Shown in pieces: positions 28,151 to 60,624 of a stretch of 64,000 nucleotides of DNA. The translations under genes were made by a program, and so were the position numbers. Position 1 is the first letter of the stretch. Every line of letters begins with the position of its first letter. The DNA is from Euprymna scolopes (taxonomy: Eukaryota): assembly GCA_053919585.1 (NCBI GenBank), contig CM132802.1, one strand, 5' to 3'. Below the pieces are notes generated by a model that saw only the letters and a program-made list of their open reading frames with translations, did not search any database and was not told where the DNA came from.

Positions 28151-28410
28151 GAATAAAAGTCATGCATTTTATTATATCATCAGAACAATAAGTAAAAGTA
28201 CAAGGGGGAAAATTAAGGAAAACAAAAGAAAAGATTAAAAAAAGCTTGCTTGCTCCTCTTAATAATGTTGAGCTTTTATCTTGATAAGTTTTGCTTTGTT
28301 AAAGATATATTTTTGGATAAGATATATATATATATATATATATATAATATTTGTTTATTTCCCTAATATTATGTTGTGATTTGGCTTTCAAGCGCACTTG
28401 ATGCGTATTT

Positions 28411-28459
<49 letters not shown>

Positions 28460-28464
<5 letters not shown>

Positions 28465-28775
28465 AAATACGCATCAAGTGCGCTTGAAAGCCAAATCACA
28501 ACATAATATTAGGGAAATAAACAAATATTTTACTTGCTTGAAATTTATAACATAAATATATTTCGGAGCTACACTCCATCTTCAGTATGTAATTTTCTTC
28601 TTTCTTTTCTTCTTTTTTGCCATGTTGTAAAGATGGAGAAAGAAAAGTCTTTTGTAAAAAGCCGCGCATTGGATCGCAGCGGTTGTATTTCAAACAAGTA
28701 AAATATTCGTTTATTTTCCTAATATTAGGTTGTGATTTGGCTTTCAAGCGCACTTGATGCTTATTTGATTTTATT
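28460..28775. mobile_element. MITE-like element with ~85-bp TIRs next to (TA)n
   Basis: gcatcaagtgcgcttgaaagccaaatcacaac...tttacttgcttgaaat is mirrored by atttcaaacaagtaaaatatt...gttgtgatttggctttcaagcgcacttgatgc. Confidence 0.75.

Positions 28776-28912: not shown

Positions 28913-28992
<80 letters not shown>
28913..28992. repeat. (CA)n microsatellite
   Basis: Seen directly. Confidence 0.98.
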
Positions 28993-28999
<7 letters not shown>

Positions 29000-29029
29000 G
29001 GATAAAAACAGAGGTGGAAAAACTTAAAT

Positions 29030-29073
29030 ACTCGATGACGTTTCGCCCGTTTAATACAGGCCTTTTCAAGAGT
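29030..29073 (-). ncRNA. Minimal type I hammerhead ribozyme motif, U3-A8 core variant
   Basis: Minus strand: actc TTGAAAA g gcctgt attaa acgggc GAAA cgtc atc gagt. The same variant core occurs at ~54812-54855. Confidence 0.6.
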
Positions 29074-29150
29074 AAAAATGTAAAATTCTCACTGATGAGA
29101 AGATTAATTAAAAGTATATATAGAGTTGGAGGGGGGCAGTATATTATACA

Positions 29151-31221
29151 TATTTACATGTGTATATATAATATGTGCTAAAAAATTAATCATTGTCCAA
29201 ATTATTTACATGTGTATATATAATATGTGCTAAAAATATTAACCATTGTCCAAATTATTTACATGTGTATATACAATATGTGCTAAAAAATTAATCATTG
29301 TCCAAATTATTTACATGTGTATATATAATATGTGCTAAAAAAATTAACCATTGTCCAAATTATTTACATGTGCATATACAATATGTGCTAAAAAAATGAA
29401 CCATTATCCAAATTATTTACATGTGTATATATAATATGTGCTAAAAAAATTAACCATTGTCCAAATTATTTACATGTGTATATACAATATGTGCTAAAAA
29501 AATTAACCATTGTCCAAATTATTTACATGTGTATATATAATATGTGCTAAAAAAATTAACCATTGTCCAAATTATTTACATGTGCATATACAATATGTGC
29601 TAAAAAAATGAACCATTGTCCAAATTATTTACATGTGTATATATAATATGTGCTAAAAAAATTGACCATTGTCCAAATTATTTACATGTGTATATACAAT
29701 ATGTGCTAAAAAAATTGACCATTGTCCAAATTATTTACACATGTATATACAATATGTGTTAAAAAAATTGACCATTGTCCAAATTATTTACATGTGTATA
29801 TACAATATGTGCTAAAAAAATTGACCATTGTCCAAATTATTTACATGTGTATATACAATATGTGCTAAAAAAATTGACCATTGTCCAAATTATTTACATG
29901 TGTATATACAATATGTGCTAAAAAAATTGACCATTGTCCAAATTATTTACATGTGTATATACAATATGTGCTAAAAAAATGACCATTGTCCAAATTATTT
30001 ACATGTGTATATATATGTGCTAAAAAAATTGACCATTGTCCAAATTATTTACATGTGTATATACAATATGTGCTAAAAAAATTGACCATTGTCCAAATTA
30101 TTTACATGTGTATATATAATATGTGCTAAAAAAATTGACCATTGTCCAAATTATTTACATGTGTATATACAATATGTGCTAAAAAAATTGACCATTGTCC
30201 AAATTATTTACATGTGTATATACAATATGTGCTAAAAAAATTGACCATTGTCCAAATTATTTACATGTGTATATACAATATGTGCTAAAAAAATTGACCA
30301 TTGTCCAAATTATTTACATGTGTATATACAATATGTGCTAAAAAAATTGACCATTGTCCAAATTATTTACATGTGTATATATAATATGTGCTAAAAAAAT
30401 TGACCATTGTCCAAATTATTTACATGTGTATATACAATATGTGCTAAAAAAATTGACCATTGTCCAAATTATTTACATGTGTATATATAATATGTGCTAA
30501 AAAAATTGACCATTGTCCAAATTATTTACATGTGTATATACAATATGTGCTAAAAAAATTGACCATTGTCCAAATTATTTACATGTGTATATATAATATG
30601 TGCTAAAAAAATTGACCATTGTCCAAATTATTTACATGTGTATATACAATATGTGCTAAAAAAATTGACCATTGTCCAAATTATTTACATGTGTATATAT
30701 AATATGTGCTAAAAAAATTGACCATTGTCCAAATTATTTACATGTGTATATACAATATGTGCTAAAAAAATTGACCATTGTCCAAATTATTTACATGTGT
30801 ATATATAATATGTGCTAAAAAAATTGACCATTGTCCAAATTATTTACATGTGTATATACAATATGTGCTAAAAAAATTGACCATTGTCCAAATTATTTAC
30901 ATGTGTATATATAATATGTGCTAAAAAAATTGACCATTGTCCAAATTATTTACATGTGTATATACAATATGTGCTAAAAAAATTGACCATTGTCCAAATT
31001 ATTTACATGTGTATATACAATATGTGCTAAAAAAATTGACCATTGTCCAAATTATTTACATGTGTATATACAATATGTGCTAAAAAAATTGACCATTGTC
31101 CAAATTATTTACATGTGTATATACAATATGTGCTAAAAAAATTGACCATTGTCCAAATTATTTACATGTGTATATATAATATGTGCTAAAAAAATTGACC
31201 ATTGTCCAAATTATTTACATG
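29151..31221. repeat. 53-bp minisatellite (~39 copies) amplified from the PLE ORF-end/3'UTR
   Basis: Unit is tgtatatayaatatgtgctaaaaaaattgaccattgtccaaattatttacatg, with period 53 measured. A single unamplified homologue lies inverted at ~55185-55250. Confidence 0.97.
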
Positions 31222-31489
31222 GATGATTATTTTACCTAAGTTCAGAGAAATATTAAAAAATCCTTTCCTTTGTTTGATTACATTAGAGGCAGATGAGAGC
31301 GGATTCCACCAAACGACGTGTAGATTTATTGTGTAGTGGTTTTAGGATTGGTGCATTTTTAAAATCAAAATGGTGGTCGTGCTCCATAATATGGAAAAAA
31401 ATGGCGTTAAGGGTGTTGTTTTTTTATGTCCCTTTTATTCTCTTGTCGTTTCGCAATGTATATCAGTCACGGCAGGATATGGAGTATAT

Positions 31490-31541
31490 CCCTGAGTGGC
31501 TTCCGGACCTTGATAAGTGGTGATCACTGTATAAAAAAAAA
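31490..31541 (+). mobile_element. Extremely truncated LINE-A tail inserted into the PLE GIY motif
   Basis: ccctgagtggcttccggaccttgataagtggtgatcactgtat plus poly(A) matches 13579-13635. Flanked by tatat on both sides. Confidence 0.85.
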
Positions 31542-31670
31542 TATATATATATACCAACTTTTTATCTTGAAATTAGATTTGGGTTTATGGATAATATCTC
31601 TGATTGTTGAAAAGGTTATTTCAGATATTTCAATAATATTTGGTTTAGTTTTTTTGTATATGTCGTTGCT

Positions 31671-34600
31671 TTTACTATTGGTAGGTAGGATTATTATTTA
31701 CAATTGGTAGGTAGGATTATTATTTACAATTGGTAGGTAGGATTATTATTTACAATTGGTAGGTAGGATTATTATTTACAATTGGTAGGTAGGATTATTA
31801 TTTACAATTGGTAGGTAGGATTATTATTTACTATTGGTAGGTAGGATTATTATTTACTATTGGTAGGTAGGATTATTATTTACTATTGGTAGGTAGGATT
31901 ATTATTTACAATTGGTAGGTAGGATTATTATTTACAATTGGTAGGTAGGATTATTATTTACAATTGGTAGGTAGGATAATTATTTACAATTGGTAGGTAG
32001 GATTATTATTTACAATTGGTAGGTAGGATTATTATTTACAATTGGTAGGTAGGATTATTATTTACAATTGGTAGGTAGGATTATTATTTACAATTGGTAG
32101 GTAGGATTATTATTTACTATTGGTAGGTAGGATTATTATTTACTATTGGTAGGTAGGATTATTATTTACTATTGGTAGGTAGGATTATTATTTACTATTG
32201 GTAGGTAGGATTATTATTTACTATTGGTAGGTAGGATTATTATTTACAATTGGTAGGTAGGATTATTATTTACTATTGGTAGGTAGGATTATTATTTACT
32301 ATTGGTAGGTAGGATTATTATTTACTATTGGTAGGTAGGATTATTATTTACAATTGGTAGGTAGGATTATTATTTACTATTGGTAGGTAGGATTATTATT
32401 TACTATTGGTAGGTAGGATTATTATTTACTATTGGTAGGTAGGATTATTATTTACTATTGGTAGGTAGGATTATTATTTACAATTGGTAGGTAGGATTAT
32501 TATTTACTATTGGTAGGTAGGATTATTATTTACAATTGGTAGGTAGGATTATTATTTACTATTGGTAGGTAGGATTATTATTTACTATTGGTAGGTAGGA
32601 TTATTATTTACTATTGGTAGGTAGGATTATTATTTACAATTGGTAGGTAGGATTATTATTTACTATTGGTAGGTAGGATTATTATTTACAATTGGTAGGT
32701 AGGATTATTATTTACTATTGGTGGGTAGGATTATTATTTACTATTGGTAGGTAGGATTATTATTTACTATTGGTAGGTAGGATTATTATTTACAATTGGT
32801 AGGTATGATTATTATTTACAATTGGTAGGTAGGATTATTATTTACTATTGGTAGGTAGGATTATTATTTACTATTGGTAGGTAGGATTATTATTTACTAT
32901 TGGTAGGTAGGATTATTATTTACTATTGGTAGGTAGGATTATTATTTACAATTGGTAGGTAGGATTATTATTTACAATTGGTAGGTAGGATTATTATTTA
33001 CAATTGGTAGGTAGGATTATTATTTACAATTGGTAGGTAGGATTATTATTTACTATTGGTAGGTAGGATTATTATTTACAATTGGTAGGTAGGATTATTA
33101 TTTACAATTGGTAGGTAGGATTATTATTTACTATTGGTAGGTAGGATTATTATTTACAATTGGTAGGTAGGATTATTATTTACAATTGGTAGGTAGGATT
33201 ATTATTTACAATTGGTAGGTAGGATTATTATTTACTATTGGTAGGTAGGATTATTATTTACAATTGGTAGGTAGGATTATTATTTACTATTGGTAGGTAG
33301 GATTATTATTTACAATTGGTAGGTAGGATTATTATTTACTATTGGTAGGTAGGATTATTATTTACAATTGGTAGGTAGGATAATTATTTACTATTGGTAG
33401 GTAGGATTATTATTTACAATTGGTAGGTAGGATTATTATTTACAATTGGTAGGTAGGATTATTATTTACTATTGGTAGGTAGGATTATTATTTACTATTG
33501 GTAGGTAGGATTATTATTTACAATTGGTAGGTAGGATTATTATTTACTATTGGTAGGTAGGATTATTATTTACAATTGGTAGGTAGGATTATTATTTACT
33601 ATTGGTAGGTAGGATTATTATTTACTATTGGTAGGTAGGATTATTATTTACTATTGGTAGGTAGGATTATTATTTACTATTGGTAGGTAGGATTATTATT
33701 TACTATTGGTAGGTAGGATTATTATTTACAATTGGTAGGTAGGATTATTATTTACTATTGGTAGGTAGGATTATTATTTACTATTGGTAGGTAGGATTAT
33801 TATTTACTATTGGTAGGTAGGATTATTATTTACAATTGGTAGGTAGGATTATTATTTACTATTGGTAGGTAGGATTATTATTTACAATTGGTAGGTAGGA
33901 TTATTATTTACTATTGGTAGGGTAGGATTATTATTTACTATTGGTAGGTAGGATTATTATTTACTATTGGTAGGTAGGATTATTATTTACAATTGGTAGG
34001 TAGGATTATTATTTACAATTGGTAGGTAGGATTATTATTTACTATTGGTAGGTAGGATTATTATTTACTATTGGTAGGTAGGATTATTATTTACAATTGG
34101 TAGGTAGGATTATTATTTACTATTGGTAGGTAGGATTATTATTTACAATTGGTAGGTAGGATTATTATTTACAATTGGTAGGTAGGATTATTATTTACAA
34201 TTGGTAGGTAGGATTATTATTTACAATTGGTAGGTAGGATTATTATTTACTATTGGTAGGTAGGATTATTATTTACAATTGGTAGGTAGGATTATTATTT
34301 ACAATTGGTAGGTAGGATTATTATTTACTATTGGTAGGTAGGATTATTATTTACAATTGGTAGGTAGGATTATTATTTACTATTGGTAGGTAGGATTATT
34401 ATTTACAATTGGTAGGTAGGATTATTATTTACTATTGGTAGGTAGGATTATTATTTACAATTGGTAGGTAGGATTATTATTTACTATTGGTAGGTAGGAT
34501 TATTATTTACAATTGGTAGGTAGGATTATTATTTACTATTGGTAGGTAGGATTATTATTTACAATTGGTAGGTAGGATTATTATTTACTATTGGTAGGTA

Positions 34601-37600
34601 GGATTATTATTTACAATTGGTAGGTAGGATTATTATTTACAATTGGTAGGTAGGATTATTATTTACAATTGGTAGGTAGGATTATTATTTACTATTGGTA
34701 GGTAGGATTATTATTTACAATTGGTAGGTAGGATTATTATTTACAATTGGTAGGTAGGATTATTATTTACTATTGGTAGGTAGGATTATTATTTACAATT
34801 GGTAGGTAGGATTATTATTTACAATTGGTAGGTAGGATTATTATTTACAATTGGTAGGTAGGATTATTATTTACAATTGGTAGGTAGGATTATTATTTAC
34901 AATTGGTAGGTAGGATTATTATTTACAATTGGTAGGTAGGATTATTATTTACAATTGGTAGGTAGGATTATTATTTACTATTGGTAGGTAGGATTATTAT
35001 TTACAATTGGTAGGTAGGATTATTATTTACAATTGGTAGGTAGGATTATTATTTACAATTGGTAGGTAGGATTATTATTTACTATTGGTAGGTAGGATTA
35101 TTATTTACAATTGGTAGGTAGGATTATTATTTACTATTGGTAGGTAGGATTATTATTTACAATTGGTAGGTAGGATTATTATTTACAATTGGTAGGTAGG
35201 ATTATTATTTACAATTGGTAGGTAGGATTATTATTTACTATTGGTAGGTAGGATTATTATTTACTATTGGTAGGTAGGATTATTATTTACAATTGGTAGG
35301 TAGGATTATTATTTACAATTGGTAGGTAGGATTATTATTTACTATTGGTAGGTAGGATTATTATTTACTATTGGTAGGTAGGATTATTATTTACTATTGG
35401 TAGGTAGGATTATTATTTACAATTGGTAGGTAGGATTATTATTTACAATTGGTAGGTAGGATTATTATTTACAATTGGTAGGTAGGATTATTATTTACTA
35501 TTGGTAGGTAGGATTATTATTTACAATTGGTAGGTAGGATTATTATTTACTATTGGTAGGTAGGATTATTATTTACAATTGGTAGGTAGGATTATTATTT
35601 ACTATTGGTAGGTAGGATTATTATTTACAATTGGTAGGTAGGATTATTATTTACTATTGGTAGGTAGGATTATTATTTACTATTGGTAGGTAGGATTATT
35701 ATTTACTATTGGTAGGTAGGATTATTATTTACAATTGGTAGGTAGGATTATTATTTACAATTGGTAGGTAGGATTATTATTTACTATTGGTAGGTAGGAT
35801 TATTATTTACTATTGGTAGGTAGGATTATTATTTACAATTGGTAGGTAGGATTATTATTTACAATTGGTAGGTAGGATTATTATTTACAATTGGTAGGTA
35901 GGATTATTATTTACAATTGGTAGGTAGGATTATTATTTACAATTGGTAGGTAGGATTATTATTTACAATTGGTAGGTAGGATTATTATTTACTATTGGTA
36001 GGTAGGATTATTATTTACAATTGGTAGGTAGGATTATTATTTACTATTGGTAGGTAGGATTATTATTTACAATTGGTAGGTAGGATTATTATTTACAATT
36101 GGTAGGTAGGATTATTATTTACAATTGGTAGGTAGGATTATTATTTACTATTGGTAGGTAGGATTATTATTTACAATTGGTAGGTAGGATTATTATTTAC
36201 AATTGGTAGGTAGGATTATTATTTACAATTGGTAGGTAGGATTATTATTTACAATTGGTAGGTAGGATTATTATTTACAATTGGTAGGTAGGATTATTAT
36301 TTACAATTGGTAGGTAGGATTATTATTTACAATTGGTAGGTAGGATTATTATTTACAATTGGTAGGTAGGATTATTATTTACTATTGGTAGGTAGGATTA
36401 TTATTTACAATTGGTAGGTAGGATTATTATTTACTATTGGTAGGTAGGATTATTATTTACTATTGGTAGGTAGTATTATTATTTACTATTGGTAGGTAGG
36501 ATTATTATTTACAATTGGTAGGTAGGATTATTATTTACTATTGGTAGGTAGGATTATTATTTACAATTGGTAGGTAGGATTATTATTTACTATTGGTAGG
36601 TAGGATTATTATTTACAATTGGTAGGTAGGATTATTATTTACTATTGGTAGGTAGGATTATTATTTACAATTGGTAGGTAGGATTATTATTTACTATTGG
36701 TAGGTAGGATTATTATTTACTATTGGTAGGTAGGATTATTATTTACTATTGGTAGGTAGGATTATTATTTACAATTGGTAGGTAGGATTATTATTTACTA
36801 TTGGTAGGTAGGATTATTATTTACTATTGGTAGGTAGGATTATTATTTACTATTGGTAGGTAGGATTATTATTTACAATTGGTAGGTAGGATTATTATTT
36901 ACAATTGGTAGGTAGGATTATTATTTACAATTGGTAGGTAGGATTATTATTTACTATTGGTAGGTAGGATTATTATTTACAATTGGTAGGTAGGATTATT
37001 ATTTACTATTGGTAGGTAGGATTATTATTTACAATTGGTAGGTAGGATTATTATTTACTATTGGTAGGTAGGATTATTATTTACAATTGGTAGGTAGGAT
37101 TATTATTTACTATTGGTAGGTAGGATTATTATTTACAATTGGTAGGTAGGATTATTATTTACTATTGGTAGGTAGGATTATTATTTACTATTGGTAGGTA
37201 GGATTATTATTTACTATTGGTAGGTAGGATTATTATTTACTATTGGTAGGTAGGATTATTATTTACTATTGGTAGGTAGGATTATTATTTACTATTGGTA
37301 GGTAGGATTATTATTTACTATTGGTAGGTAGGATTATTATTTACTATTGGTAGGTAGGATTATTATTTACTATTGGTAGGTAGGATTATTATTTACTATT
37401 GGTAGGTAGGATTATTATTTACTATTGGTAGGTAGGATTATTATTTACTATTGGTAGGTAGGATTATTATTTACAATTGGTAGGTAGGATTATTATTTAC
37501 TATTGGTAGGTAGGATTATTATTTACTATTGGTAGGTAGGATTATTATTTACTATTGGTAGGTAGGATTATTATTTACTATTGGTAGGTAGGATTATTAT

Positions 37601-40600
37601 TTACTATTGGTAGGTAGGATTATTATTTACAATTGGTAGGTAGGATTATTATTTACTATTGGTAGGTAGGATTATTATTTACTATTGGTAGGTAGGATTA
37701 TTATTTACAATTGGTAGGTAGGATTATTATTTACTATTGGTAGGTAGGATTATTATTTACTATTGGTAGGTAGGATTATTATTTACTATTGGTAGGTAGG
37801 ATTATTATTTACTATTGGTAGGTAGGATTATTATTTACAATTGGTAGGTAGGATTATTATTTACTATTGGTAGGTAGGATTATTATTTACAATTGGTAGG
37901 TAGGATTATTATTTACTATTGGTAGGTAGGATTATTATTTACAATTGGTAGGTAGGATTATTATTTACTATTGGTAGGTAGGATTATTATTTACAATTGG
38001 TAGGTAGGATTATTATTTACTATTGGTAGGTAGGATTATTATTTACAATTGGTAGGTAGGATTATTATTTACTATTGGTAGGTAGGATTATTATTTACAA
38101 TTGGTAGGTAGGATTATTATTTACTATTGGTAGGTAGGATTATTATTTACAATTGGTAGGTAGGATTATTATTTACTATTGGTAGGTAGGATTATTATTT
38201 ACTATTGGTAGGTAGGATTATTATTTACTATTGGTAGGTAGGATTATTATTTACTATTGGTAGGTAGGATTATTATTTACTATTGGTAGGTAGGATTATT
38301 ATTTACTATTGGTAGGTAGGATTATTATTTACAATTGGTAGGTAGGATTATTATTTACTATTGGTAGGTAGGATTATTATTTACTATTGGTAGGTAGGAT
38401 TATTATTTACAATTGGTAGGTAGGATTATTATTTACTATTGGTAGGTAGGATTATTATTTACTATTGGTAGGTAGGATTATTATTTACTATTGGTAGGTA
38501 GGATTATTATTTACTATTGGTAGGTAGGATTATTATTTACTATTGGTAGGTAGGATTATTATTTACTATTGGTAGGTAGGATTATTATTTACTATTGGTA
38601 GGTAGGATTATTATTTACTATTGGTAGGTAGGATTATTATTTACTATTGGTAGGTAGGATTATTATTTACTATTGGTAGGTAGGATTATTATTTACTATT
38701 GGTAGGTAGGATTATTATTTACTATTGGTAGGTAGGATTATTATTTACTATTGGTAGGTAGGATTATTATTTACTATTGGTAGGTAGGATTATTATTTAC
38801 TATTGGTAGGTAGGATTATTATTTACTATTGGTAGGTAGGATTATTATTTACTATTGGTAGGTAGGATTATTATTTACAATTGGTAGGTAGGATTATTAT
38901 TTACAATTGGTAGGTAGGATTATTATTTACAATTGGTAGGTAGGATTATTATTTACTATTGGTAGGTAGGATTATTATTTACAATTGGTAGGTAGGATTA
39001 TTATTTACTATTGGTAGGTAGGATTATTATTTACAATTGGTAGGTAGGATTATTATTTACTATTGGTAGGTAGGATTATTATTTACAATTGGTAGGTAGG
39101 ATTATTATTTACTATTGGTAGGTAGGATTATTATTTACAATTGGTAGGTAGGATTATTATTTACTATTGGTAGGTAGGATTATTATTTACTATTGGTAGG
39201 TAGGATTATTATTTACTATTGGTAGGTAGGATTATTATTTACTATTGGTAGGTAGGATTATTATTTACAATTGGTAGGTAGGATTATTATTTACTATTGG
39301 TAGGTAGGATTATTATTTACAATTGGTAGGTAGGATTATTATTTACTATTGGTAGGTAGGATTATTATTTACAATTGGTAGGTAGGATTATTATTTACAA
39401 TTGGTAGGTAGGATTATTATTTACTATTGGTAGGTAGGATTATTATTTACATATTGGTAGGTAGGGATTATTATTTACAATTGGTAGGTAGGATTATTAT
39501 TTACTATTGGTAGGTAGGATTATTATTTACTATTGGTAGGTAGGATTATTATTTACAATTGGTAGGTAGGATTATTATTTACTATTGGTAGGTAGGATTA
39601 TTATTTACTATTGGTAGGTAGGATTATTATTTACAATTGGTAGGTAGGATTATTATTTACAATTGGTAGGTAGGATTATTATTTACTATTGGTAGGTAGG
39701 ATTATTATTTACAATTGGTAGGTAGGATTATTATTTACTATTGGTAGGTAGGATTATTATTTACTATTGGTAGGTAGGATTATTATTTACAATTGGTAGG
39801 TAGGATTATTATTTACTATTGGTAGGTAGGATTATTATTTACTATTGGTAGGTAGGATTATTATTTACAATTGGTAGGTAGGATTATTATTTACTATTGG
39901 TAGGTAGGATTATTATTTACTATTGGTAGGTAGGATTATTATTTACTATTGGTAGGTAGGATTATTATTTACTATTGGTAGGTAGGATTATTATTTACTA
40001 TTGGTAGGTAGGATTATTATTTACTATTGGTAGGTAGGATTATTATTTACAATTGGTAGGTAGGATTATTATTTACTATTGGTAGGTAGGATTATTATTT
40101 AATATGGTAGTAGGATTATTATTTACAATTGGTGTAGGTTAGGATAACAGCAAATAAGGAATATTATTTACAATGGTTTATTATTATAGGATATATATAC
40201 TCATTTAATGTAGGATAAATCTTTACAAAATTAATAAGGTAGGATTATTATTACTATTGGTAGGTAGGATTATTATTTACTATTGGTAGTAGGATTATTA
40301 TTACAATTGGTAGGTAGGATTATTNNNNNNNNNNNNNNNNNNNNNNNNNNNNNNNNNNNNNNNNNNNNNNNNNNNNNNNNNNNNNNNNNNNNNNNNNNNN
40401 NNNNNNNNNNNNNNNNNNNNNNNNGATTATTATTTACATTGGTAGGTAGGATTATTATTTACAATTGGTAGGTTGGATTATTATTTACTATTGGTAGGTA
40501 GGATTATTATTACAATGGTAGGTAGGATATTATTTACAATTGGTAGGTAGGATTATTATTTACAATTGGTAGGTAGGATTATTATTTACTATTGGTAGGT

Positions 40601-43600
40601 AGGATTATTATTTACTATTGGTAGGTAGGATTATTATTTACTATTGGTAGGTAGGATTATTATTTACTATTGGTAGGTAGGATTATTATTTACTATTGGT
40701 AGGTAGGATTATTATTTACTATTGGTAGGTAGGATTATTATTTACTATTGGTAGGTAGGATTATTATTTACTATTGGTAGGTAGGATTATTATTTACTAT
40801 TGGTAGGTAGGATTATTATTTACTATTGGTAGGTAGGATTATTATTTACTATTGGTAGGTAGGATTATTATTTACTATTGGTAGGTAGGATTATTATTTA
40901 CTATTGGTAGGTAGGATTATTATTTACTATTGGTAGGTAGGATTATTATTTACTATTGGTAGGTAGGATTATTATTTACTATTGGTAGGTAGGATTATTA
41001 TTTACTATTGGTAGGTAGGATTATTATTTACTATTGGTAGGTAGGATTATTATTTACTATTGGTAGGTAGGATTATTATTTACTATTGTAGGTAGGATTA
41101 TTATTTACTATTGGTAGGTAGGATTATTATTTACTATTGGTAGGTAGGATTATTATTTACTATTGGTAGGTAGGATTATTATTTACTATTGGTAGGTAGG
41201 ATTATTATTTACTATTGGTAGGTAGGATTATTATTTACAATTGGTAGGTAGGATTATTATTTACTATTGGTAGGTAGGATTATTATTTACTATTGGTAGG
41301 TAGGATTATTATTTACTATTGGTAGGTAGGATTATTATTTACTATTGGTAGGTAGGATTATTATTTACTATTGGTAGGTAGGATTATTATTTACAATTGG
41401 TAGGTAGGATTATTATTTACTATTGGTAGGTAGGATTATTATTTACTATTGGTAGGTAGGATTATTATTTACTATTGGTAGGTAGGATTATTATTTACTA
41501 TTGGTAGGTAGGATTATTATTTACTATTGGTAGGTAGGATTATTATTTACTATTGGTAGGTAGGATTATTATTTACTATTGGTAGGTAGGATTATTATTT
41601 ACTATTGGTAGGTAGGATTATTATTTACAATTGGTAGGTAGGATTATTATTTACTATTGGTAGGTAGGATTATTATTTACTATTGGTAGGTAGGATTATT
41701 ATTTACTATTGGTAGGTAGGATTATTATTTACAATTGGTAGGTAGGATTATTATTTACTATTGGTAGGTAGGATTATTATTTACTATTGGTAGGTAGGAT
41801 ATTATTTACTATTGGTAGGTAGGATTATTATTTACTATTGGTAGGTAGGATTATTATTTACTATTGGTAGGTAGGATTATTATTTACTATTGGTAGGTAG
41901 GATTATTATTTACTATTGGTAGGTAGGATTATTATTTACTATTGGTAGGTAGGATTATTATTTACTATTGGTAGGTAGGATTATTATTTACAATTGGTAG
42001 GTAGGATTATTATTTACTATTGGTAGGTAGGATTATTATTTACTATTGGTAGGTAGGATTATTATTTACTATTGGTAGGTAGGATTATTATTTACTATTG
42101 GTAGGTAGGATTATTATTTACTATTGGTAGGTAGGATTATTATTTACTATTGGTAGGTAGGATTATTATTTACTATTGGTAGGTAGGATTATTATTTACT
42201 ATTGGTAGGTAGGATTATTATTTACTATTGGTAGGTAGGATTATTATTTACAATTGGTAGGTAGGATTATTATTTACAATTGGTAGGTAGGATTATTATT
42301 TACTATTGGTAGGTAGGATTATTATTTACAATTGGTAGGTAGGATTATTATTTACTATTGGTAGGTAGGATTATTATTTACTATTGGTAGGTAGGATTAT
42401 TATTTACAATTGGTAGGTAGGATTATTATTTACTATTGGTAGGTAGGATTATTATTTACTATTGGTAGGTAGGATTATTATTTACTATTGGTAGGTAGGA
42501 TTATTATTTACAATTGGTAGGTAGGATTATTATTTACAATTGGTAGGTAGGATTATTATTTACTATTGGTAGGTAGGATTATTATTTACTATTGGTAGGT
42601 AGGATTATTATTTACTATTGGTAGGTAGGATTATTATTTACTATTGGTAGGTAGGATTATTATTTACAATTGGTAGGTAGGATTATTATTTACAATTGGT
42701 AGGTAGGATTATTATTTACAATTGGTAGGTAGGATTATTATTTACTATTGGTAGGTAGGATTATTATTTACAATTGGTAGGTAGGATTATTATTTACAAT
42801 TGGTAGGTAGGATTATTATTTACAATTGGTAGGTAGGATTATTATTTACAATTGGTAGGTAGGATTATTATTTACTATTGGTAGGTAGGATTATTATTTA
42901 CTATTGGTAGGTAGGATTATTATTTACAATTGGTAGGTAGGATTATTATTTACAATTGGTAGGTAGGATTATTATTTACTATTGGTAGGTAGGATTATTA
43001 TTTACAATTGGTAGGTAGGATTATTATTTACTATTGGTAGGTAGGATTATTATTTACTATTGGTAGGTAGGATTATTATTTACTATTGGTAGGTAGGATT
43101 ATTATTTACTATTGGTAGGTAGGATTATTATTTACTATTGGTAGGTAGGATTATTATTTACAATTGGTAGGTAGGATTATTATTTACTATTGGTAGGTAG
43201 GATTATTATTTACTATTGGTAGGTAGGATTATTATTTACTATTGGTAGGTAGGATTATTATTTACTATTGGTAGGTAGGATTATTATTTACTATTGGTAG
43301 GTAGGATTATTATTTACAATTGGTAGGTAGGATTATTATTTACAATTGGTAGGTAGGATTATTATTTACAATTGGTAGGTAGGATTATTATTTACAATTG
43401 GTAGGTAGGATTATTATTTACTATTGGTAGGTAGGATTATTATTTACTATTGGTAGGTAGGATTATTATTTACTATTGGTAGGTAGGATTATTATTTACT
43501 ATTGGTAGGTAGGATTATTATTTACTATTGGTAGGTAGGATTATTATTTACTATTGGTAGGTAGGATTATTATTTACAATTGGTAGGTAGGATTATTATT

Positions 43601-46600
43601 TACTATTGGTAGGTAGGATTATTATTTACAATTGGTAGGTAGGATTATTATTTACAATTGGTAGGTAGGATTATTATTTACTATTGGTAGGTAGGATTAT
43701 TATTTACTATTGGTAGGTAGGATTATTATTTACTATTGGTAGGTAGGATTATTATTTACTATTGGTAGGTAGGATTATTATTTACAATTGGTAGGTAGGA
43801 TTATTATTTACAATTGGTAGGTAGGATTATTATTTACTATTGGTAGGTAGGATTATTATTTACTATTGGTAGGTAGGATTATTATTTACTATTGGTAGGT
43901 AGGATTATTATTTACTATTGGTAGGTAGGATTATTATTTACTATTGGTAGGTAGGATTATTATTTACAATTGGTAGGTAGGATTATTATTTACTATTGGT
44001 AGGTAGGATTATTATTTACAATTGGTAGGTAGGATTATTATTTACAATTGGTAGGTAGGATTATTATTTACTATTGGTAGGTAGGATTATTATTTACTAT
44101 TGGTAGGTAGGATTATTATTTACTATTGGTAGGTAGGATTATTATTTACAATTGGTAGGTAGGATTATTATTTACAATTGGTAGGTAGGATTATTATTTA
44201 CAATTGGTAGGTAGGATTATTATTTACAATTGGTAGGTAGGATTATTATTTACTATTGGTAGGTAGGATTATTATTTACTATTGGTAGGTAGGATTATTA
44301 TTTACAATTGGTAGGTAGGATTATTATTTACTATTGGTAGGTAGGATTATTATTTACAATTGGTAGGTAGGATTATTATTTACAATTGGTAGGTAGGATT
44401 ATTATTTACAATTGGTAGGTAGGATTATTATTTACTATTGGTAGGTAGGATTATTATTTACTATTGGTAGGTAGGATTATTATTTACAATTGGTAGGTAG
44501 GATTATTATTTACTATTGGTAGGTAGGATTATTATTTACAATTGGTAGGTAGGATTATTATTTACTATTGGTAGGTAGGATTATTATTTACAATTGGTAG
44601 GTAGGATTATTATTTACTATTGGTAGGTAGGATTATTATTTACAATTGGTAGGTAGGATTATTATTTACAATTGGTAGGTAGGATTATTATTTACTATTG
44701 GTAGGTAGGATTATTATTTACTATTGGTAGGTAGGATTATTATTTACAATTGGTAGGTAGGATTATTATTTACTATTGGTAGGTAGGATTATTATTTACT
44801 ATTGGTAGGTAGGATTATTATTTACTATTGGTAGGTAGGATTATTATTTACTATTGGTAGGTAGGATTATTATTTACTATTGGTAGGTAGGATTATTATT
44901 TACTATTGGTAGGTAGGATTATTATTTACTATTGGTAGGTAGGATTATTATTTACTATTGGTAGGTAGGATTATTATTTACTATTGGTAGGTAGGATTAT
45001 TATTTACTATTGGTAGGTAGGATTATTATTTACTATTGGTAGGTAGGATTATTATTTACAATTGGTAGGTAGGATTATTATTTACTATTGGTAGGTAGGA
45101 TTATTATTTACAATTGGTAGGTAGGATTATTATTTACAATTGGTAGGTAGGATTATTATTTACTATTGGTAGGTAGGATTATTATTTACTATTGGTAGGT
45201 AGGATTATTATTTACAATTGGTAGGTAGGATTATTATTTACTATTGGTAGGTAGGATTATTATTTACAATTGGTAGGTAGGATTATTATTTACAATTGGT
45301 AGGTAGGATTATTATTTACTATTGGTAGGTAGGATTATTATTTACTATTGGTAGGTAGGATTATTATTTACTATTGGTAGGTAGGATTATTATTTACTAT
45401 TGGTAGGTAGGATTATTATTTACTATTGGTAGGTAGGATTATTATTTACAATTGGTAGGTAGGATTATTATTTACTATTGGTAGGTAGGATTATTATTTA
45501 CTATTGGTAGGTAGGATTATTATTTACTATTGGTAGGTAGGATTATTATTTACTATTGGTAGGTAGGATTATTATTTACTATTGGTAGGTAGGATTATTA
45601 TTTACTATTGGTAGGTAGGATTATTATTTACTATTGGTAGGTAGGATTATTATTTACTATTGGTAGGTAGGATTATTATTTACAATTGGTAGGTAGGATT
45701 ATTATTTACAATTGGTAGGTAGGATTATTATTTACTATTGGTAGGTAGGATTATTATTTACTATTGGTAGGTAGGATTATTATTTACTATTGGTAGGTAG
45801 GATTATTATTTACTATTGGTAGGTAGGATTATTATTTACAATTGGTAGGTAGGATTATTATTTACAATTGGTAGGTAGGATTATTATTTACAATTGGTAG
45901 GTAGGATTATTATTTACTATTGGTAGGTAGGATTATTATTTACTATTGGTAGGTAGGATTATTATTTACTATTGGTAGGTAGGATTATTATTTACAATTG
46001 GTAGGTAGGATTATTATTTACAATTGGTAGGTAGGATTATTATTTACTATTGGTAGGTAGGATTATTATTTACTATTGGTAGGTAGGATTATTATTTACT
46101 ATTGGTAGGTAGGATTATTATTTACTATTGGTAGGTAGGATTATTATTTACTATTGGTAGGTAGGATTATTATTTACAATTGGTAGGTAGGATTATTATT
46201 TACTATTGGTAGGTAGGATTATTATTTACTATTGGTAGGTAGGATTATTATTTACTATTGGTAGGTAGGATTATTATTTACTATTGGTAGGTAGGATTAT
46301 TATTTACTATTGGTAGGTAGGATTATTATTTACTATTGGTAGGTAGGATTATTATTTACTATTGGTAGGTAGGATTATTATTTACTATTGGTAGGTAGGA
46401 TTATTATTTACTATTGGTAGGTAGGATTATTATTTACTATTGGTAGGTAGGATTATTATTTACTATTGGTAGGTAGGATTATTATTTACAATTGGTAGGT
46501 AGGATTATTATTTACTATTGGTAGGTAGGATTATTATTTACAATTGGTAGGTAGGATTATTATTTACTATTGGTAGGTAGGATTATTATTTACTATTGGT

Positions 46601-49600
46601 AGGTAGGATTATTATTTACAATTGGTAGGTAGGATTATTATTTACTATTGGTAGGTAGGATTATTATTTACAATTGGTAGGTAGGATTATTATTTACAAT
46701 TGGTAGGTAGGATTATTATTTACAATTGGTAGGTAGGATTATTATTTACAATTGGTAGGTAGGATTATTATTTACAATTGGTAGGTAGGATTATTATTTA
46801 CTATTGGTAGGTAGGATTATTATTTACAATTGGTAGGTAGGATTATTATTTACTATTGGTAGGTAGGATTATTATTTACAATTGGTAGGTAGGATTATTA
46901 TTTACAATTGGTAGGTAGGATTATTATTTACAATTGGTAGGTAGGATTATTATTTACAATTGGTAGGTAGGATTATTATTTACAATTGGTAGGTAGGATT
47001 ATTATTTACAATTGGTAGGTAGGATTATTATTTACAATTGGTAGGTAGGATTATTATTTACAATTGGTAGGTAGGATTATTATTTACAATTGGTAGGTAG
47101 GATTATTATTTACAATTGGTAGGTAGGATTATTATTTACAATTGGTAGGTAGGATTATTATTTACAATTGGTAGGTAGGATTATTATTTACTATTGGTAG
47201 GTAGGATTATTATTTACAATTGGTAGGTAGGATTATTATTTACTATTGGTAGGTAGGATTATTATTTACAATTGGTAGGTAGGATTATTATTTACAATTG
47301 GTAGGTAGGATTATTATTTACAATTGGTAGGTAGGATTATTATTTACTATTGGTAGGTAGGATTATTATTTACAATTGGTAGGTAGGATTATTATTTACT
47401 ATTGGTAGGAAGGATTATTATTTACAATTGGTAGGTAGGATTATTATTTACTATTGGTAGGTAGGATTATTATTTACAATTGGTAGGTAGGATTATTATT
47501 TACAATTGGTAGGTAGGATTATTATTAATATTGGTAGGTAGGATTATTATTTACAATTGGTAGGTTGGATTATTATTTACAATTGGTAGGTAGGATTATT
47601 ATTTACAATTGGTAGGTAGGATTATTATTTACTATTGGTAGGTAGGATTATTATTTACAATTGGTAGGTAGGATTATTATTTACTATTGGTAGGTAGGAT
47701 TATTATTTACTATTGGTAGGTAGGATTATTATTTACAATTGGTAGGTAGGATTTTTATTTACTATTGGTAGGTAGGATTATTATTTACTATTGGTAGGTA
47801 GGATTATTATTTACAATTGGTAGGTAGGATTATTATTTACTATTGGTAGGTAGGATTATTATTTAGTATTGGTAGGTAGGATTATTATTTACAATTGGTA
47901 GGTAGGATTATTATTTACAATTGGTAGGTAGGATTATTATTTACTATTGGTAGGTAGGATTATTATTTACTATTGGTAGGTAGGATTATTATTTACAATT
48001 GGTAGGTAGGATTATTATTTACTATTGGTAGGTAGGATTATTATTTACTATTGGTAGGTAGGATTATTATTTACAATTGGTAGGTAGGATTATTATTTAC
48101 TATTGGTAGGTAGGATTATTATTTACTATTGGTAGGTAGGATTATTATTTACAATTGGTAGGTAGGATTATTATTTACAATTGGTAGGTAGGATTATTAT
48201 TTACTATTGGTAGGTAGGATTATTATTTACTATTGGTAGGTAGGATTATTATTTACAATTGGTAGGTAGGATTATTATTTACTATTGGTAGGTAGGATTA
48301 TTATTTACTATTGGTAGGTAGGATTATTATTTACTATTGGTAGGTAGGATTATTATTTACTATTGGTAGGTAGGATTATTATTTACTATTGGTAGGTAGG
48401 ATTATTATTTACAATTGGTAGGTAGGATTATTATTTACAATTGGTAGGTAGGATTATTTCACTATTGGTAGGTAGGATTATTATTTACTATTGGTAGGTA
48501 GGATTATTATTTACAATTGGTAGGTAGGATTATTATTTACTATTTGTAGGTAGGATTATTATTTACTATTGGTAGGTAGGATTATTATTTACTATTGGTA
48601 GGTAGGATTATTATTTACTATTGGTAGGTAGGATTATTATTTACTATTGGTAGGTAGGATTATTATTTACTATTGGTAGGTAGGATTATTATTTACTATT
48701 GGTAGGTAGGATTATTATTTACTATTGGTAGGTAGGATTATTATTTACTATTGGTAGGTAGGATTATTATTTACTATTGGTAGGTAGGATTATTATTTAC
48801 TATTGGTAGGTAGGATTATTATTTACTATTGGTAGGTAGGATTATTATTTACTATTGGTAGGTAGGATTATTATTTACTATTGGTAGGTAGGATTATTAT
48901 TTACAATTGGTAGGTAGGATTATTATTTACTATTGGTAGGTAGGATTATTATTTACTATTGGTAGGTAGGATTATTATTTACTATTGGTAGGTAGGATTA
49001 TTATTTACTATTGGTAGGTAGGATTATTATTTACTATTGGTAGGTAGGATTATTATTTACTATTGGTAGGTAGGATTATTATTTACAATTGGTAGGTAGG
49101 ATTATTATTTACTATTGGTAGGTAGGATTATTATTTACAATTGGTAGGTAGGATTATTATTTACTATTGGTAGGTAGGATTATTATTTACTATTGGTAGG
49201 TAGGATTATTATTTACAATTGGTAGGTAGGATTATTATTTACTATTGGTAGGTAGGATTATTATTTACAATTGGTAGGTAGGATTATTATTTACAATTGG
49301 TAGGTAGGATTATTATTTACAATTGGTAGGTAGGATTATTATTTACAATTGGTAGGTAGGATTATTATTTACTATTGGTAGGTAGGATTATTATTTACAA
49401 TTGGTAGGTAGGATTATTATTTACTATTGGTAGGTAGGATTATTATTTACAATTGGTAGGTAGGATTATTATTTACAATTGGTAGGTAGGATTATTATTT
49501 ACAATTGGTAGGTAGGATTATTATTTACAATTGGTAGGTAGGATTATTATTTACAATTGGTAGGTAGGATTATTATTTACAATTGGTAGGTAGGATTATT

Positions 49601-52600
49601 ATTTACAATTGGTAGGTAGGATTATTATTTACAATTGGTAGGTAGGATTATTATTTACAATTGGTAGGTAGGATTATTATTTACAATTGGTAGGTAGGAT
49701 TATTATTTACAATTGGTAGGTAGGATTATTATTTACTATTGGTAGGTAGGATTATTATTTACAATTGGTAGGTAGGATTATTATTTACTATTGGTAGGTA
49801 GGATTATTATTTACAATTGGTAGGTAGGATTATTATTTACAATTGGTAGGTAGGATTATTATTTACAATTGGTAGGTAGGATTATTATTTACTATTGGTA
49901 GGTAGGATTATTATTTACAATTGGTAGGTAGGATAATTATTTACTATTGGTAGGTAGGATTATTATTTACAATTGGTAGGTAGGATTATTATTTACAATT
50001 GGTAGGTAGGATTATTATTTACTATTGGTAGGTAGGATTATTATTTACAATTGGTAGGTAGGATTATTATTTACAATTGGTAGGTAGGATTATTATTTAC
50101 TATTGGTAGGTAGGATTATTATTTACAATTGGTAGGTAGGATTATTATTTACAATTGGTAGGTAGGATTATTATTTACTATTGGTAGGTAGGATTTACAA
50201 TTGGTAGTAGGATTATTATTTACAATTGGTAGGTAGGATTATTATTTACTATTGGTAGGTAGGATTATTATTTACTATTGGTAGGTAGGATTATTATTTA
50301 CAATTGGTAGGTAGGATTATTATTAACTATTGGTAGGTAGGATTATTATTTACTATTGGTAGGTAGGATTATTATTTACAATTGGTAGGTAGGATTATTA
50401 TTTACTATTGGTAGGTAGGATTATTATTTACTATTGGTAGGTAGGATTATTATTTACAATTGGTAGGTAGGATTATTATTTACAATTGGTAGGTAGGATT
50501 ATTATTTACTATTGGTAGGTAGGATTATTATTTACTATTGGTAGGTAGGATTATTATTTACAATTGGTAGGTAGGATTATTATTTACTATTGGTAGGTAG
50601 GATTATTATTTACTATTGGTAGGTAGGATTATTATTTACTATTGGTAGGTAGGATTATTATTTACTATTGGTAGGTAGGATTATTATTTACTATTGGTAG
50701 GTAGGATTATTATTTACAATTGGTAGGTAGGATTATTATTTACTATTGGTAGGTAGGATTATTATTTACTATTGGTAGGTAGGATTATTATTTACAATTG
50801 GTAGGTAGGATTATTATTTACTATTGGTAGGTAGGATTATTATTTACTATTGGTAGGTAGGATTATTATTTACAATTGGTAGGTAGGATTATTATTTACT
50901 ATTGGTAGGTAGGATTATTATTTACTATTGGTAGGTAGGATTATTATTTACAATTGGTAGGTAGGATTATTATTTACTATTGGTAGGTAGGATTATTATT
51001 TACAATTGGTAGGTAGGATTATTATTTACTATTGGTAGGTAGGATTATTATTTACTATTGGTAGGTAGGATTATTATTTACAATTGGTAGGTAGGATTAT
51101 TATTTACTATTGGTAGGTAGGATTATTATTTACAATTGGTAGGTAGGATTATTATTTACTATTGGTAGGTAGGATTATTATTTACAATTGGTAGGTAGGA
51201 TTATTATTTACTATTGGTAGGTAGGATTATTATTTACAATTGGTAGGTAGGATTATTATTTACTATTGGTAGGTAGGATTATTATTTACAATTGGTAGGT
51301 AGGATTATTATTTACTATTGGTAGGTAGGATTATTATTTACTATTGGTAGGTAGGATTATTATTTACTATTGGTAGGTAGGATGATTATTTACTATTGGT
51401 AGGTAGGATTATTATTTACTATTGGTAGGTAGGATTATTATTTACTATTGGTAGGTAGGATTATTATTTACTATTGGTAGGTAGGATTATTATTTACTAT
51501 TGGTAGGTAGGATTATTATTTACTATTGGTAGGTAGGATTATTATTTACTATTGGTAGGTAGGATTATTATTTACTATTGGTAGGTAGGATTATTATTTA
51601 CAATTGGTAGGTAGGATTATTATTTACTATTGGTAGGTAGGATTATTATTTACTATTGGTAGGTAGGATTATTATTTACAATTGGTAGGTAGGATTATTA
51701 TTTACAATTGGTAGGTAGGATTATTATTTACTATTGGTAGGTAGGATTATTATTTACTATTGGTAGGTAGGATTATTATTTACAATTGGTAGGTAGGATT
51801 ATTATTTACAATTGGTAGGTAGGATTATTATTTACAATTGGTAGGTAGGATTATTATTTACTATTGGTAGGTAGGATTATTATTTACTATTGGTAGGTAG
51901 GATTATTATTTACAATTCTAGGTAGGATTATTATTTACTATTGGTAGGTAGGATTATTATTTACAATTGGTAGGTAGGATTATTATTTACTATTGGTAGG
52001 TAGGATTATTATTTACAATTGGTAGGTAGGATTATTATTTACAATTGGTAGGTAGGATTATTATTTACTATTGGTAGGTAGGATTATTATTTACTATTGG
52101 TAGGTAGGATTATTATTTACAATTGGTAGGTAGGATTATTATTTACAATTGGTAGGTAGGATTATTATTTACAATTGGTAGGTAGGATTATTATTTACTA
52201 TTGGTAGGTAGGATTATTATTTACTATTGGTAGGTAGGATTATTATTTACAATTGGTAGGTAGGATTATTATTTACAATTGGTAGGTAGGATTATTATTT
52301 ACAATTGGTAGGTAGGATTATTATTTACTATTGGTAGGTAGGATTATTATTTACTATTGGTAGGTAGGATTATTATTTACTATTGGTAGGTAGGATTATT
52401 ATTTACTATTGGTAGGTAGGATTATTATTTACTATTGGTAGGTAGGATTATTATTTACAATTGGTAGGTAGGATTATTATTTACTATTGGTAGGTAGGAT
52501 TATTATTTACTATTGGTAGGTAGGATTATTATTTACTATTGGTAGGTAGGATTATTATTTACTATTGGTAGGTAGGATTATTATTTACTATTGGTAGGTA

Positions 52601-54735
52601 GGATTATTATTTACTATTGGTAGGTAGGATTATTATTTACAATTGGTAGGTAGGATTATTATTTACTATTGGTAGGTAGGATTATTATTTACTATTGGTA
52701 GGTAGGATTATTATTTACTATTGGTAGGTAGGATTATTATTTACTATTGGTAGGTAGGATTATTATTTACTATTGGTAGGTAGGATTATTATTTACAATT
52801 GGTAGGTAGGATTATTATTTACTATTGGTAGGTAGGATTATTATTTACAATTGGTAGGTAGGATTATTATTTACTATTGGTAGGTAGGATTATTATTTAC
52901 TATTGGTAGGTAGGATTATTATTTACAATTGGTAGGTAGGATTATTATTTACTATTGGTAGGTAGGATTATTATTTACAATTGGTAGGTAGGATTATTAT
53001 TTACTATTGGTAGGTAGGATTATTATTTACAATTGGTAGGTAGGATTATTATTTACAATTGGTAGGTAGGATTATTATTTACTATTGGTAGGTAGGATTA
53101 TTATTTACAATTGGTAGGTAGGATTATTATTTACTATTGGTAGGTAGGATTATTATTTACAATTGGTAGGTAGGATTATTATTTACAATTGGTAGGTAGG
53201 ATTATTATTTACAATTGGTAGGTAGGATTATTATTTACAATTGGTAGGTAGGATTATTATTTACAATTGGTAGGTAGGATTATTATTTACAATTGGTAGG
53301 TAGGATTATTATTTACAATTGGTAGGTAGGATTATTATTTACAATTGGTAGGTAGGATTATTATTTACAATTGGTAGGTAGGATTATTATTTACAATTGG
53401 TAGGTAGGATTATTATTTACAATTGGTAGGTAGGATTATTATTTACTATTGGTAGGTAGGATTATTATTTACAATTGGTAGGTAGGATTATTATTTACTA
53501 TTGGTAGGTAGGATTATTATTTACTATTGGTAGGTAGGATTATTATTTACAATTGGTAGGTAGGATTATTATTTACAATTGGTAGGTAGGATTATTATTT
53601 ACTATTGGTAGGTAGGATTATTATTTACAATTGGTAGGTAGGATTATATTTACTATTGGTAGGAAGGATTATTATTTACAATTGGTAGGTAGGATTATTA
53701 TTTACAATTGGTAGGTAGGATTATTATTTACTATTGGTAGGTAGGATTATTATTTACAATTGGTAGGTAGGATTATTATTTACTATTGGTAGGTAGGATT
53801 ATTATTTACTATTGGTAGGTAGGATTATTATTTACAATTGGTAGGTAGGATTATTATTTACTATTGGTAGGTAGGATTATTATTTACTATTTGTAGGTAG
53901 GATTATTATTTACAATTGGTAGGTAGGATTATTATTTACTATTGGTAGGTAGGATTATTATTTACTATTGGTAGGTAGGATTATTATTTACAATTGGTAG
54001 GTAGGATTATTATTTACAATTGGTAGGTAGGATTATTATTTACTATTGGTAGGTAGGATTATTATTTACTATTGGTAGGTAGGATTATTATTTACAATTG
54101 GTAGGTAGGATTATTATTTACTATTGGTAGGTAGGATTATTATTTACTATTGGTAGGTAGGATTATTATTTACAATTGGTAGGTAGGATTATTATTTACT
54201 ATTGGTAGGTAGGATTATTATTTACTATTGGTAGGTAGGATTATTATTTACAATTGGTAGGTAGGATTATTATTTACTATTGGTAGGTAGGATTATTATT
54301 TACTATTGGTAGGTAGGATTATTATTTACTATTGGTAGGTAGGATTATTATTTACAATTGGTAGGTAGGATTATTATTTACTATTGGTAGGTAGGATTAT
54401 TATTTACTATTGGTAGGTAGGATTATTATTTACTATTGGTAGGTAGGATTATTATTTACTATTGGTAGGTAGGATTATTATTTACTATTGGTAGGTAGGA
54501 TTATTATTTACAATTGGTAGGTAGGATTATTATTTACTATTGGTAGGTAGGATTATTATTTACTATTGGTAGGTAGGATTATTATTTACTATTGGTAGGT
54601 AGGATTATTATTTACTATTGGTAGGTAGGATTATTATTTACTATTGGTAGGTAGGATTATTATTTACTATTGGTAGGTAGGATTATTATTTACTATTGGT
54701 AGGTAGGATTATTATTTACAATTGGTAGGTAGGAT
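31671..54735. repeat. 23-kb tandem array of a 26-bp unit (tttacWattggtaggtaggattatta), ~880 assembled copies, 100-N gap at 40325-40424
   Basis: Period of 26 (line phase recurs every 780 bp). Near-invariant apart from W = A/T. Confidence 0.99.
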
Positions 54736-54780
54736 CTTTCATATCGACAGTATAGTTAAAATATGAAAAAAATCCGACGA

Positions 54781-55310
54781 TATGATAAAACGGAGGTGGA
54801 AAGACCCAAATATTCAATGATGTTTCGCCCGTTAAATGCAGGCTTTTTCAAGAGTAAAAATGTAAAATGCTCACTGACAAGAAGATCAAGAGTATGTATA
54901 GAATGAAGCGGCGAGGATGGACAGTATATTATACATATTTACATGTGTATATACAATATGTGCTAAAAACAAAACAAAAACAACACCCTAAACACCATTT
55001 TTCCGCATATTATGGAGCATGGCCACCATTTTGATTTTGAAAATGCAACAATCCTAAAAACAATACATAGTAAATCTACACATTGTTGGATGGAATCCGC
55101 GTTTATCATCCACTCCCCCAATGTAATCAAACAAAGGAAAGGATTTTAAAAAACATTTCTCTGCACTTATATAAAATAATTATCCATGAAAATAATTTGG
55201 ACAATAGTTAATTTTTTTTGCAAATAGTGTATATACACATGTATATATGTATAATATACTGCCCCCCTTCACCACCTTACTCTATATATACTCTTAATTA
55301 ATTTTTTTTT
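54781..55310. mobile_element. Second PLE end: pLTR copy (54781-54968, same orientation as 28996-29185) followed by an inverted endonuclease C-terminus and 3'UTR (54975-55310, + strand)
   Basis: Plus-strand translation: NNTLNTIFPHIMEHGHHFDFENATILKTIHSKSTHCWMESAFIIHSPNVIKQRKGF*. 54781-54968 aligns with 28996-29185. Confidence 0.88.
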
Positions 55311-60599: not shown

Positions 60600-60624
60600 G
60601 ACTCCTAACAAACAGTTCCCCAAT

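Follow-up and report, generated by a model that had tools for sequence, protein, structure and literature searches.

Two tandem arrays born from a dead Penelope-like element, one of them derived from its coding sequence, probably at the 5' junction

Results

In a 64,000-nt stretch of DNA (the window; coordinates are positions in it, and minus and plus are relative to the strand shown), we found two tandem arrays that were born from a dead Penelope-like element (PLE), one of them from coding sequence and probably at the 5' junction of the element. The element spans 28997-55305, and about 1.19 kb remain when the extra repeat copies are removed, the tail of a long interspersed nuclear element (LINE) included. 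It is fairly probable that 28997-55305 represents one dead PLE insertion, composed of a 5'-truncated body, an upstream pseudo-long terminal repeat (pLTR) that probably carries a tail, and an inverted copy, and that two short stretches in it were later amplified in place. The original prediction, made from the letters of the DNA, was a PLE relic inflated to about 26 kb by two arrays whose monomers both derive from PLE sequence. The arrays, the PLE homology, the residual 1.19 kb and the single monomers in other copies of the family bear this out, with 26 kb as an assembled length.

Origin and position of the 26-bp array

The larger array (31671-54735, minus strand) was delimited by Tandem Repeats Finder with 887.8 copies and 97% matches, i.e. 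about 888 copies when counted as whole units plus a final 21 bp. It is a long, homogeneous head-to-tail array: over the 23 kb assembled, 35 of 22,490 bases (0.16%, a figure that includes sequencing error) deviate from the consensus when the gap region and one dimorphic site are disregarded. The two main variants, which are distinguished by this single site, account for 493 and 346 of 869 anchored intervals. The first 26-mer reads ILPTN in frame and falls on the invariant L-P column of a PLE profile built from eight relatives (19.8 bits); L-P is found in all eight and LPTN in five of them. Other reading frames through the 26-mer were rejected (profile -2.7 bits).

Four public runs (X1, X2, X3 and X8) were mapped onto 31150-31735, and the contigs referred to here are among the 32 of 18,858 pieces that were listed. 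All 12 listed contigs over the linker and the array start (31560-31699) depart from the reference after 19-29 bp of the array, each with 11-167 unmatched letters beyond the departure, and thus these other copies hold the 26-bp monomer at most once. A single 26-mer in other PLE copies is what the original prediction had expected. Seven of the 12 contigs depart at 31691 (21 bp), and the right end of the array leaves the unit at the same phase. Since these seven stop at base 21, the family probably contributes no more than 21-24 of the 26 bp. For organism A, with three runs from two studies, the ratio of array-bin to linker-bin depth was 42.5, 43.5 and 95.1, and the run of organism B gave 1.5. 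These ratios serve only as a contrast, summed contig depth being no measure of copy number, and the source sample may be X1. The 21-bp core of the monomer had no exact match in metagenome contigs and none in viral contigs. A hairpin in the 26-mer as driver of its amplification was rejected (DNA fold z -1.1).

At its right end the array is followed by a 44-bp segment (54736-54779, minus strand), which is probably the optional tail of the upstream pLTR. Its composition (T 0.43, A 0.27) resembles that of a 3' untranslated region (UTR), and the linker of the open reading frame (ORF) has A 0.50. The segment closes a stem-loop (z -3.0, for a folding interval chosen after inspection), gives no match to the PLE profile, and about 108 nt separate its far end from helix II of the hammerhead motif described below. 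This spacing is near the 111-118 nt given for the start of reverse transcription in an anole element (PMC11167929). When the segment is read as an optional tail, the array lies at the 5'-truncation junction of the body, and its probable position is therefore where the truncated body meets the tail of the upstream pLTR, not in the middle of the ORF. The original claim that the 26-mer continues into the PLE frame holds for the in-frame match at L-P and has to be amended for the position at a junction and for the share of family sequence. The idea that the 44-bp segment is the natural continuation of the ORF ahead of ILPTN is disfavoured: two codons fit, but the segment lies inside an inverted-repeat arm and has UTR-like composition.

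Origin of the 53-bp array

The smaller array (29151-31221, minus strand; 39.2 copies, 97% matches in Tandem Repeats Finder) has its source in the ORF stop and the 3'UTR. The PLE ORF extends into the last of the 39 copies and the monomer includes the family stop codon, in agreement with the prediction that the 53-mer spans the ORF end and the 3'UTR. Elsewhere the monomer is held once: the inverted copy carries a single 53-bp monomer, inside which its reading frame ends, and one long X1 contig carries a single monomer as well. The array shows a polarity: the family (stop-codon) base is kept in the leftmost nine copies and has given way in the remaining 30 to a derived one, which removes the stop. 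At this site (31197), other genomic copies have the family base at 207/249, 184/184, 52/52 and 178/224 of the depth in X1, X2, X3 and X8, respectively.

Direct repeats of 10 bp flank the 53-bp monomer; they match perfectly in the array copy and imperfectly in the inverted one. The base that makes the repeat imperfect (31217) is frequent in other copies of X1-X3 (163/253, 49/103 and 151/167 of the depth). A dimer of the 53-mer folds with a z of -2.3 as DNA. We suggest that the seed of this array arose by slippage or microhomology-mediated repair between the 10-bp direct repeats around the stop codon.

Protein homology and affiliation of the element

A 60-residue peptide (54967-55146) retrieved three relatives, a profile of the peptide and two of these retrieved protein P0006, and P0006 retrieved eight more. 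P0006 (542 residues) carries Pfam RVT_1 and GIY-YIG, both above cut-off. Its tblastn matches lie on the minus strand at 31694-31578, 31534-31292 and 31299-31204 (combined E 1e-18 within the window) and on the plus strand at 54979-55146. The comparison of the reconstructed peptide with PLE GIY-YIG proteins, which the original prediction had proposed as a check, thus ended in a match to a protein with both reverse transcriptase (RT) and GIY-YIG domains. The profile of P0006 and seven further relatives found the same places only, among 1278 six-frame chunks of the window. C-terminal GIY-YIG homology, as in endonuclease-positive (EN+) PLEs, is seen by tblastn and by profile. RVT_1 is present in the relatives P0006, P0008, P0009 and P0011-P0013; with the profile, no RT was found in the window, as expected for a 5'-truncated copy.

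The endonuclease frame is broken. It contains stops, one frameshift and the inserted LINE tail, it lacks about 11 codons including the YIG motif, and a stop codon replaces one Cys of the CCHH set. A Pfam search with two window peptides returned no family, and the linker peptide alone as query found no homologue among 21 candidates. Neptune-type CX2-5CxxC cysteines are absent between ILPTN and GIY in the eight relatives and in the window peptide. The lack of a Neptune-type linker suggests that the element belongs to the Penelope/Poseidon group, as judged by comparison of linkers and not by a tree. Three related distant PLE loci share 36-47% identity and are too remote for DNA comparison. One of them (L003) has, about 40 nt past its stop codon (at about 1075-1110), a stretch that resembles a hammerhead and has a short helix II; it was seen by eye and gave no descriptor match.

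Layout of the element

The 3' end of the element adjoins a (CA)40 plus (TA)3 microsatellite (28913-28996), which, from the tandem-repeat listing and a reading of the flanks, is the likely insertion site. The 3' end of the PLE body, a part of the 3'UTR/pLTR (28997-29150, minus strand), is followed by the 53-bp array and by the broken end of the GIY-YIG endonuclease (31222-31492, minus strand; tblastn, profile 47.6 and 11.2 bits). At the GIY codons a 5'-truncated LINE tail with poly(A) is inserted (31493-31547, plus strand). Beyond it lies the RT-to-endonuclease linker of the PLE ORF (31548-31670, minus strand), which matches residues 382-420 of P0006 in tblastn, gives the 19.8 bits mentioned above and is found in other copies in all four runs. 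The linker leads into the 26-bp array and the 44-bp segment.

On the far side of the 44-bp segment, self-comparison identified the upstream pLTR (54780-54969, minus strand), which repeats the 3' end in direct orientation. Its hammerhead (core 54851) is decayed, and of a 53-bp monomer it contains 35 bp. This pLTR is 82% identical to 28997-29184, and its part 54780-54935 aligns to the 3' end of the body with 22 mismatches over 149 bases. This is the second PLE end that had been predicted after the big array, at a spacing of 44 bp instead of 45. The inverted, 5'-truncated copy (54970-55305, plus strand; 84% identity to 31169-31423, tblastn E 7e-11) comprises an endonuclease end, the stop codon, one 53-bp monomer and part of the 3'UTR. 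The direct and the inverted copy together give the pLTR arrangement of EN+ PLEs. The original description of the element was incomplete, since it overlooked this inverted third copy, the hammerhead motifs and a 100-N gap in the large array.

PLE insertions typically combine a partial tandem with an inverted copy next to it, a tail on one end and a flanking microsatellite (PMC8557442), an insertion bias toward microsatellites has been described (PMC8557442), and tails of 30-40 bp belong to the layout of partial tandem plus inverted copy (PMC8557442; PMC11167929). The window element shares with EN+ PLEs of the Penelope/Poseidon layout the C-terminal GIY-YIG, the 5' truncation, the pLTR-forming partial tandem, the neighbouring inverted copy, the probable single-end tail and the microsatellite flank. 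Unlike them, it has no RT left, its endonuclease is broken and two internal stretches are amplified to 2 kb and 23 kb.

The LINE tail within the element, which had been predicted, was confirmed by its match to other LINE 3' ends in the window and by 8-bp repeats with one mismatch that bound it (31485-31492 and 31548-31555). Loose contig ends accumulate at 31487 in all four runs. Cover is absent at 31530-31549 in every run and at 31430-31469 in some, and no conclusion follows from these bins. Two contigs from X1 and X2 are nearly exact to the locus (31381-31504 with no difference, 31381-31496 with one); both end before they bridge the LINE junction by a rule of 31 letters on each side. Decayed LINE fragments of at least two families, which we take to be CR1/L2-like, lie at 12905-13638, 16852-17847, 22505-23168, 25109-25685 and 63543-63881. 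The tail inserted at 31493 is the 3' tail of these fragments, and its depth is very high in all four runs.

Two further observations concern the PLE family. Three of the listed contigs end at 31425, close to the start of the inverted copy, and one joint switches strand there; this position may be a preferred truncation site. A deletion form (31389-31601, with 21 or 20 letters between the sides) occurs in one contig each of X3 (organism B) and X8 (organism A) and is a shared older copy elsewhere.

Hammerhead motifs

A hammerhead descriptor matches the minus strand once in each direct end of the element (core at 29069 and 54851). In the whole window it has seven matches, these two included, against a mean of 0.24 in 50 shuffles. 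The motif at 29032-29073 (minus strand, core at 29069; fold z -2.3) is a minimal type-I hammerhead with a U3-A8 core variant, a 4-bp helix I, a bulge, a 6-bp helix II, a palindromic helix III and an intact cleavage triplet. Rfam at gathering score gave no match. Judged by sequence and fold, the element thus carries the pLTR hammerheads of EN+ PLEs.

The U3-A8 core, the bulge and the palindromic helix III have been described for PLE minimal hammerheads (PMC4209133). With the metazoan U3-A8 variant the window motifs share the short helix I, the bulged base, the long helix II, the palindromic helix III and the pLTR position. Unlike those hammerheads, the pair described here is predicted from letters and folding, its second copy is decayed and 25.8 kb separate the copies in the assembly. 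Non-LTR retrozymes are likewise PLE-derived, tandem and hammerhead-associated, with a hammerhead in each unit (10.64898/2026.07.22.740005). The descriptor has no match inside either array, and membership of the arrays in this class was rejected, since neither monomer holds the required hammerhead.

Five further descriptor matches have a C3-G8 core: 3578(+), 12596(-), 28585(-), 60585(-) and 60639(+). Four of the five lie in or beside inverted repeats (12538-12902, 28343-28774, 60541-60683). They are probably pLTR remnants of other PLE families.

Discussion

Age and mode of amplification

In three of four comparisons the pieces of the PLE differ from each other by 14.8%, 14.9% and 17.6%. Compared with the 0.16% within the 26-bp array, this indicates that the insertion long predates most of the amplification, unless the true age of the array is masked by homogenisation. 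Slippage, microhomology-mediated repair and unequal exchange are mechanisms by which arrays form. We propose that an old PLE of the Penelope/Poseidon type (about 1.2 kb) inserted beside the (CA)n/(TA)n tract and decayed, and that the LINE tail inserted later into the decayed element. Long afterwards, two short stretches would have been amplified in place by DNA processes of the host. The seeds could have arisen by replication slippage or microhomology-mediated repair, and growth could have proceeded by unequal exchange or conversion. The seed of the 26-mer would have combined 21-24 bp from the start of the truncated body with 2-5 bases of the junction. Most likely the arrays are neutral repetitive DNA, and no function is indicated.

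Several observations weigh against this reconstruction. The fourth comparison between PLE pieces gives a divergence of only 5.9% (3/51 bases), and homogenisation can give an old array a young look. The 26-bp array contains the 100-N gap (40325-40424) with degraded bases alongside, and the 26 kb are therefore an assembled and not a measured length. No listed contig bridges the junction of body and 26-mer in the form of the locus itself (31 letters on each side), one X1 contig exits the array into a flank that is absent from the window, and a reading of the flanks revealed no target-site duplication around the whole element. A dimer periodicity is present in the left half of the array (reached in none of 2000 permutations) and absent from the right half (739/2000); this contrast fits local rounds of unequal exchange and also two loci joined at the gap. 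As regards the 53-mer, a clear excess in depth is seen in X8 only and not in X1-X3, and the derived base that prevails in the array makes up 0 of the depth in X2 and X3, 42/249 in X1 and 46/224 in X8. With this low share and no clear excess in depth in X1-X3, the 39 copies are unconfirmed by the runs, and the copy number of the 53-mer may vary between individuals. The imperfect-repeat base at 31217, finally, is rare in X8 (13/139).

Alternative explanations

Some of these points could be explained if the 26 kb were a composite. Several loci would then carry such arrays, either as members of a small non-autonomous PLE subfamily or through segmental duplication, and the scaffold would join two of them at the 100-N gap. 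The gap with its noisy bases inside the array, the unlike periodicity of the two halves and the X1 flank at the array edge would all be accounted for. However, both flanks are of the same family and in the same orientation and jointly form a canonical layout, all 12 listed other copies lack the array, and both halves share the two variants at similar frequency (0.55 and 0.61). We consider a composite unlikely.

A second alternative keeps the single locus and places the first tandem copies of the 26-mer at insertion. The RT of the PLE would have re-copied the last 21-26 nt before the jump to the pLTR, or end-joining at the junction would have produced them, with later amplification by the host. 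This would suit an array that apparently starts exactly at the 5' end of the body and comprises 2-5 bases absent from most listed copies, and PLE RTs share ancestry with telomerase RT (PMC8557442). On the other hand, the array, measured against the divergence of the element, is about 50-fold more uniform, the 53-mer arose without such a junction, and the 44-bp segment is a tail only by inference. A literature search on reiterative synthesis found no PLE paper by title. All in all, seeding at insertion appears quite unlikely; if it were true, 5' junctions of PLEs would be a systematic birthplace of minisatellites and satellites, and the locus would be a species-specific satellite with its birth site intact.

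An unrelated satellite that was inserted or assembled here, with ILPTN as a chance reading, might be suspected from the short, AT-rich monomer and from a linker peptide that by itself has neither a homologue (0/21) nor a Pfam family, but this idea is very improbable and already largely refuted by the position of the monomer at the invariant L-P column and by PLE copies of two organisms that align through its first 19-29 bp. That the big array is mostly an artefact of an assembly looping over a short repeat, as gap and degraded sequence in its middle might suggest, is hardly credible, given the aperiodic pattern of the two variants, in which no mixed word of 22 units is repeated, and the 42-95-fold enrichment of the monomer relative to the body next to it, seen in three runs from two studies.

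Relation to known satellites

Amplification in place from a decayed PLE, the explanation we prefer, fits a known route. Satellite arrays derived from transposable elements (TEs) include those from the Ogre LTR in Lathyrus (PMC7004042), the Tetris TIR-220 arrays in Drosophila virilis (PMC4079207), ORF-derived satellites of CR1/L1 (PMC9659126) and the Penelope-related satellite HviSat02-2707 (PMC11955569). A 2025 review names Penelope elements among satellite sources (PMC12692304), and PLE families have been noted to contain tandem repeats (PMC8557442; PMC3124438). The general route from a TE piece to a satellite, Penelope included, is thus already published, and this locus is a well-preserved further example.

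As in Ogre, Tetris TIR-220, CR1/L1 and HviSat02-2707, a TE piece has expanded to a tandem array of kilobase scale. The arrays described here differ in their very short units (26 and 53 bp) and in that both original flanks are seemingly preserved. In Ogre and Tetris, the element family already has short internal arrays, whereas other copies of the window PLE carry the monomer once. An array seeded at a PLE 5' junction was not found in a literature search that covered titles and abstract openings, with most subscription papers and supplements (e.g. that of PMC8557442) outside its scope.

The origin of a satellite is usually erased. Here, both seeds, the flanks and unexpanded copies persist, and the first steps are legible at the level of single bases: 10-bp direct repeats around one seed, a truncation junction at the other, the polarity of variants, and an expansion in one of two related organisms. 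The locus is a usable test case for how arrays start and grow and reveals no new function.

Other repeats in the window

The original prediction had also proposed a local amplification hotspot. Two arrays do lie in one element, and with four other minisatellites in 36.4 kb the probability of two or more in 1.19 kb is 0.008. However, this value rises to 0.064 given one array, and a third young array without a PLE match lies 1.8 kb to the left of the element, so that the case for a hotspot is weak. This third array (25870-27221) consists of 68 copies of a 20-bp AT-only-like unit with 96% matched; a PLE origin was rejected, as its flanks gave neither a self-match nor a profile match.

Older minisatellites are found at 7604-7915, 20650-21038 and 58157-58750 (37-, 18- and 33-bp units). 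The 18- and 33-bp units yield repeat-made open frames of 120-154 residues. Near an N gap, a palindrome (28343-28532, 98.9%) is centred on (TA)24 and accompanied by a diverged third arm (28687-28774); it is a recent fold-back or an assembly artefact. The window is AT-rich, with microsatellites and with LINE and mariner fragments, and this composition and repeat content suggest an animal genome. A mariner-like transposase fragment lies at 63262-63630 (Pfam DDE_3, E 0.001, below cut-off).

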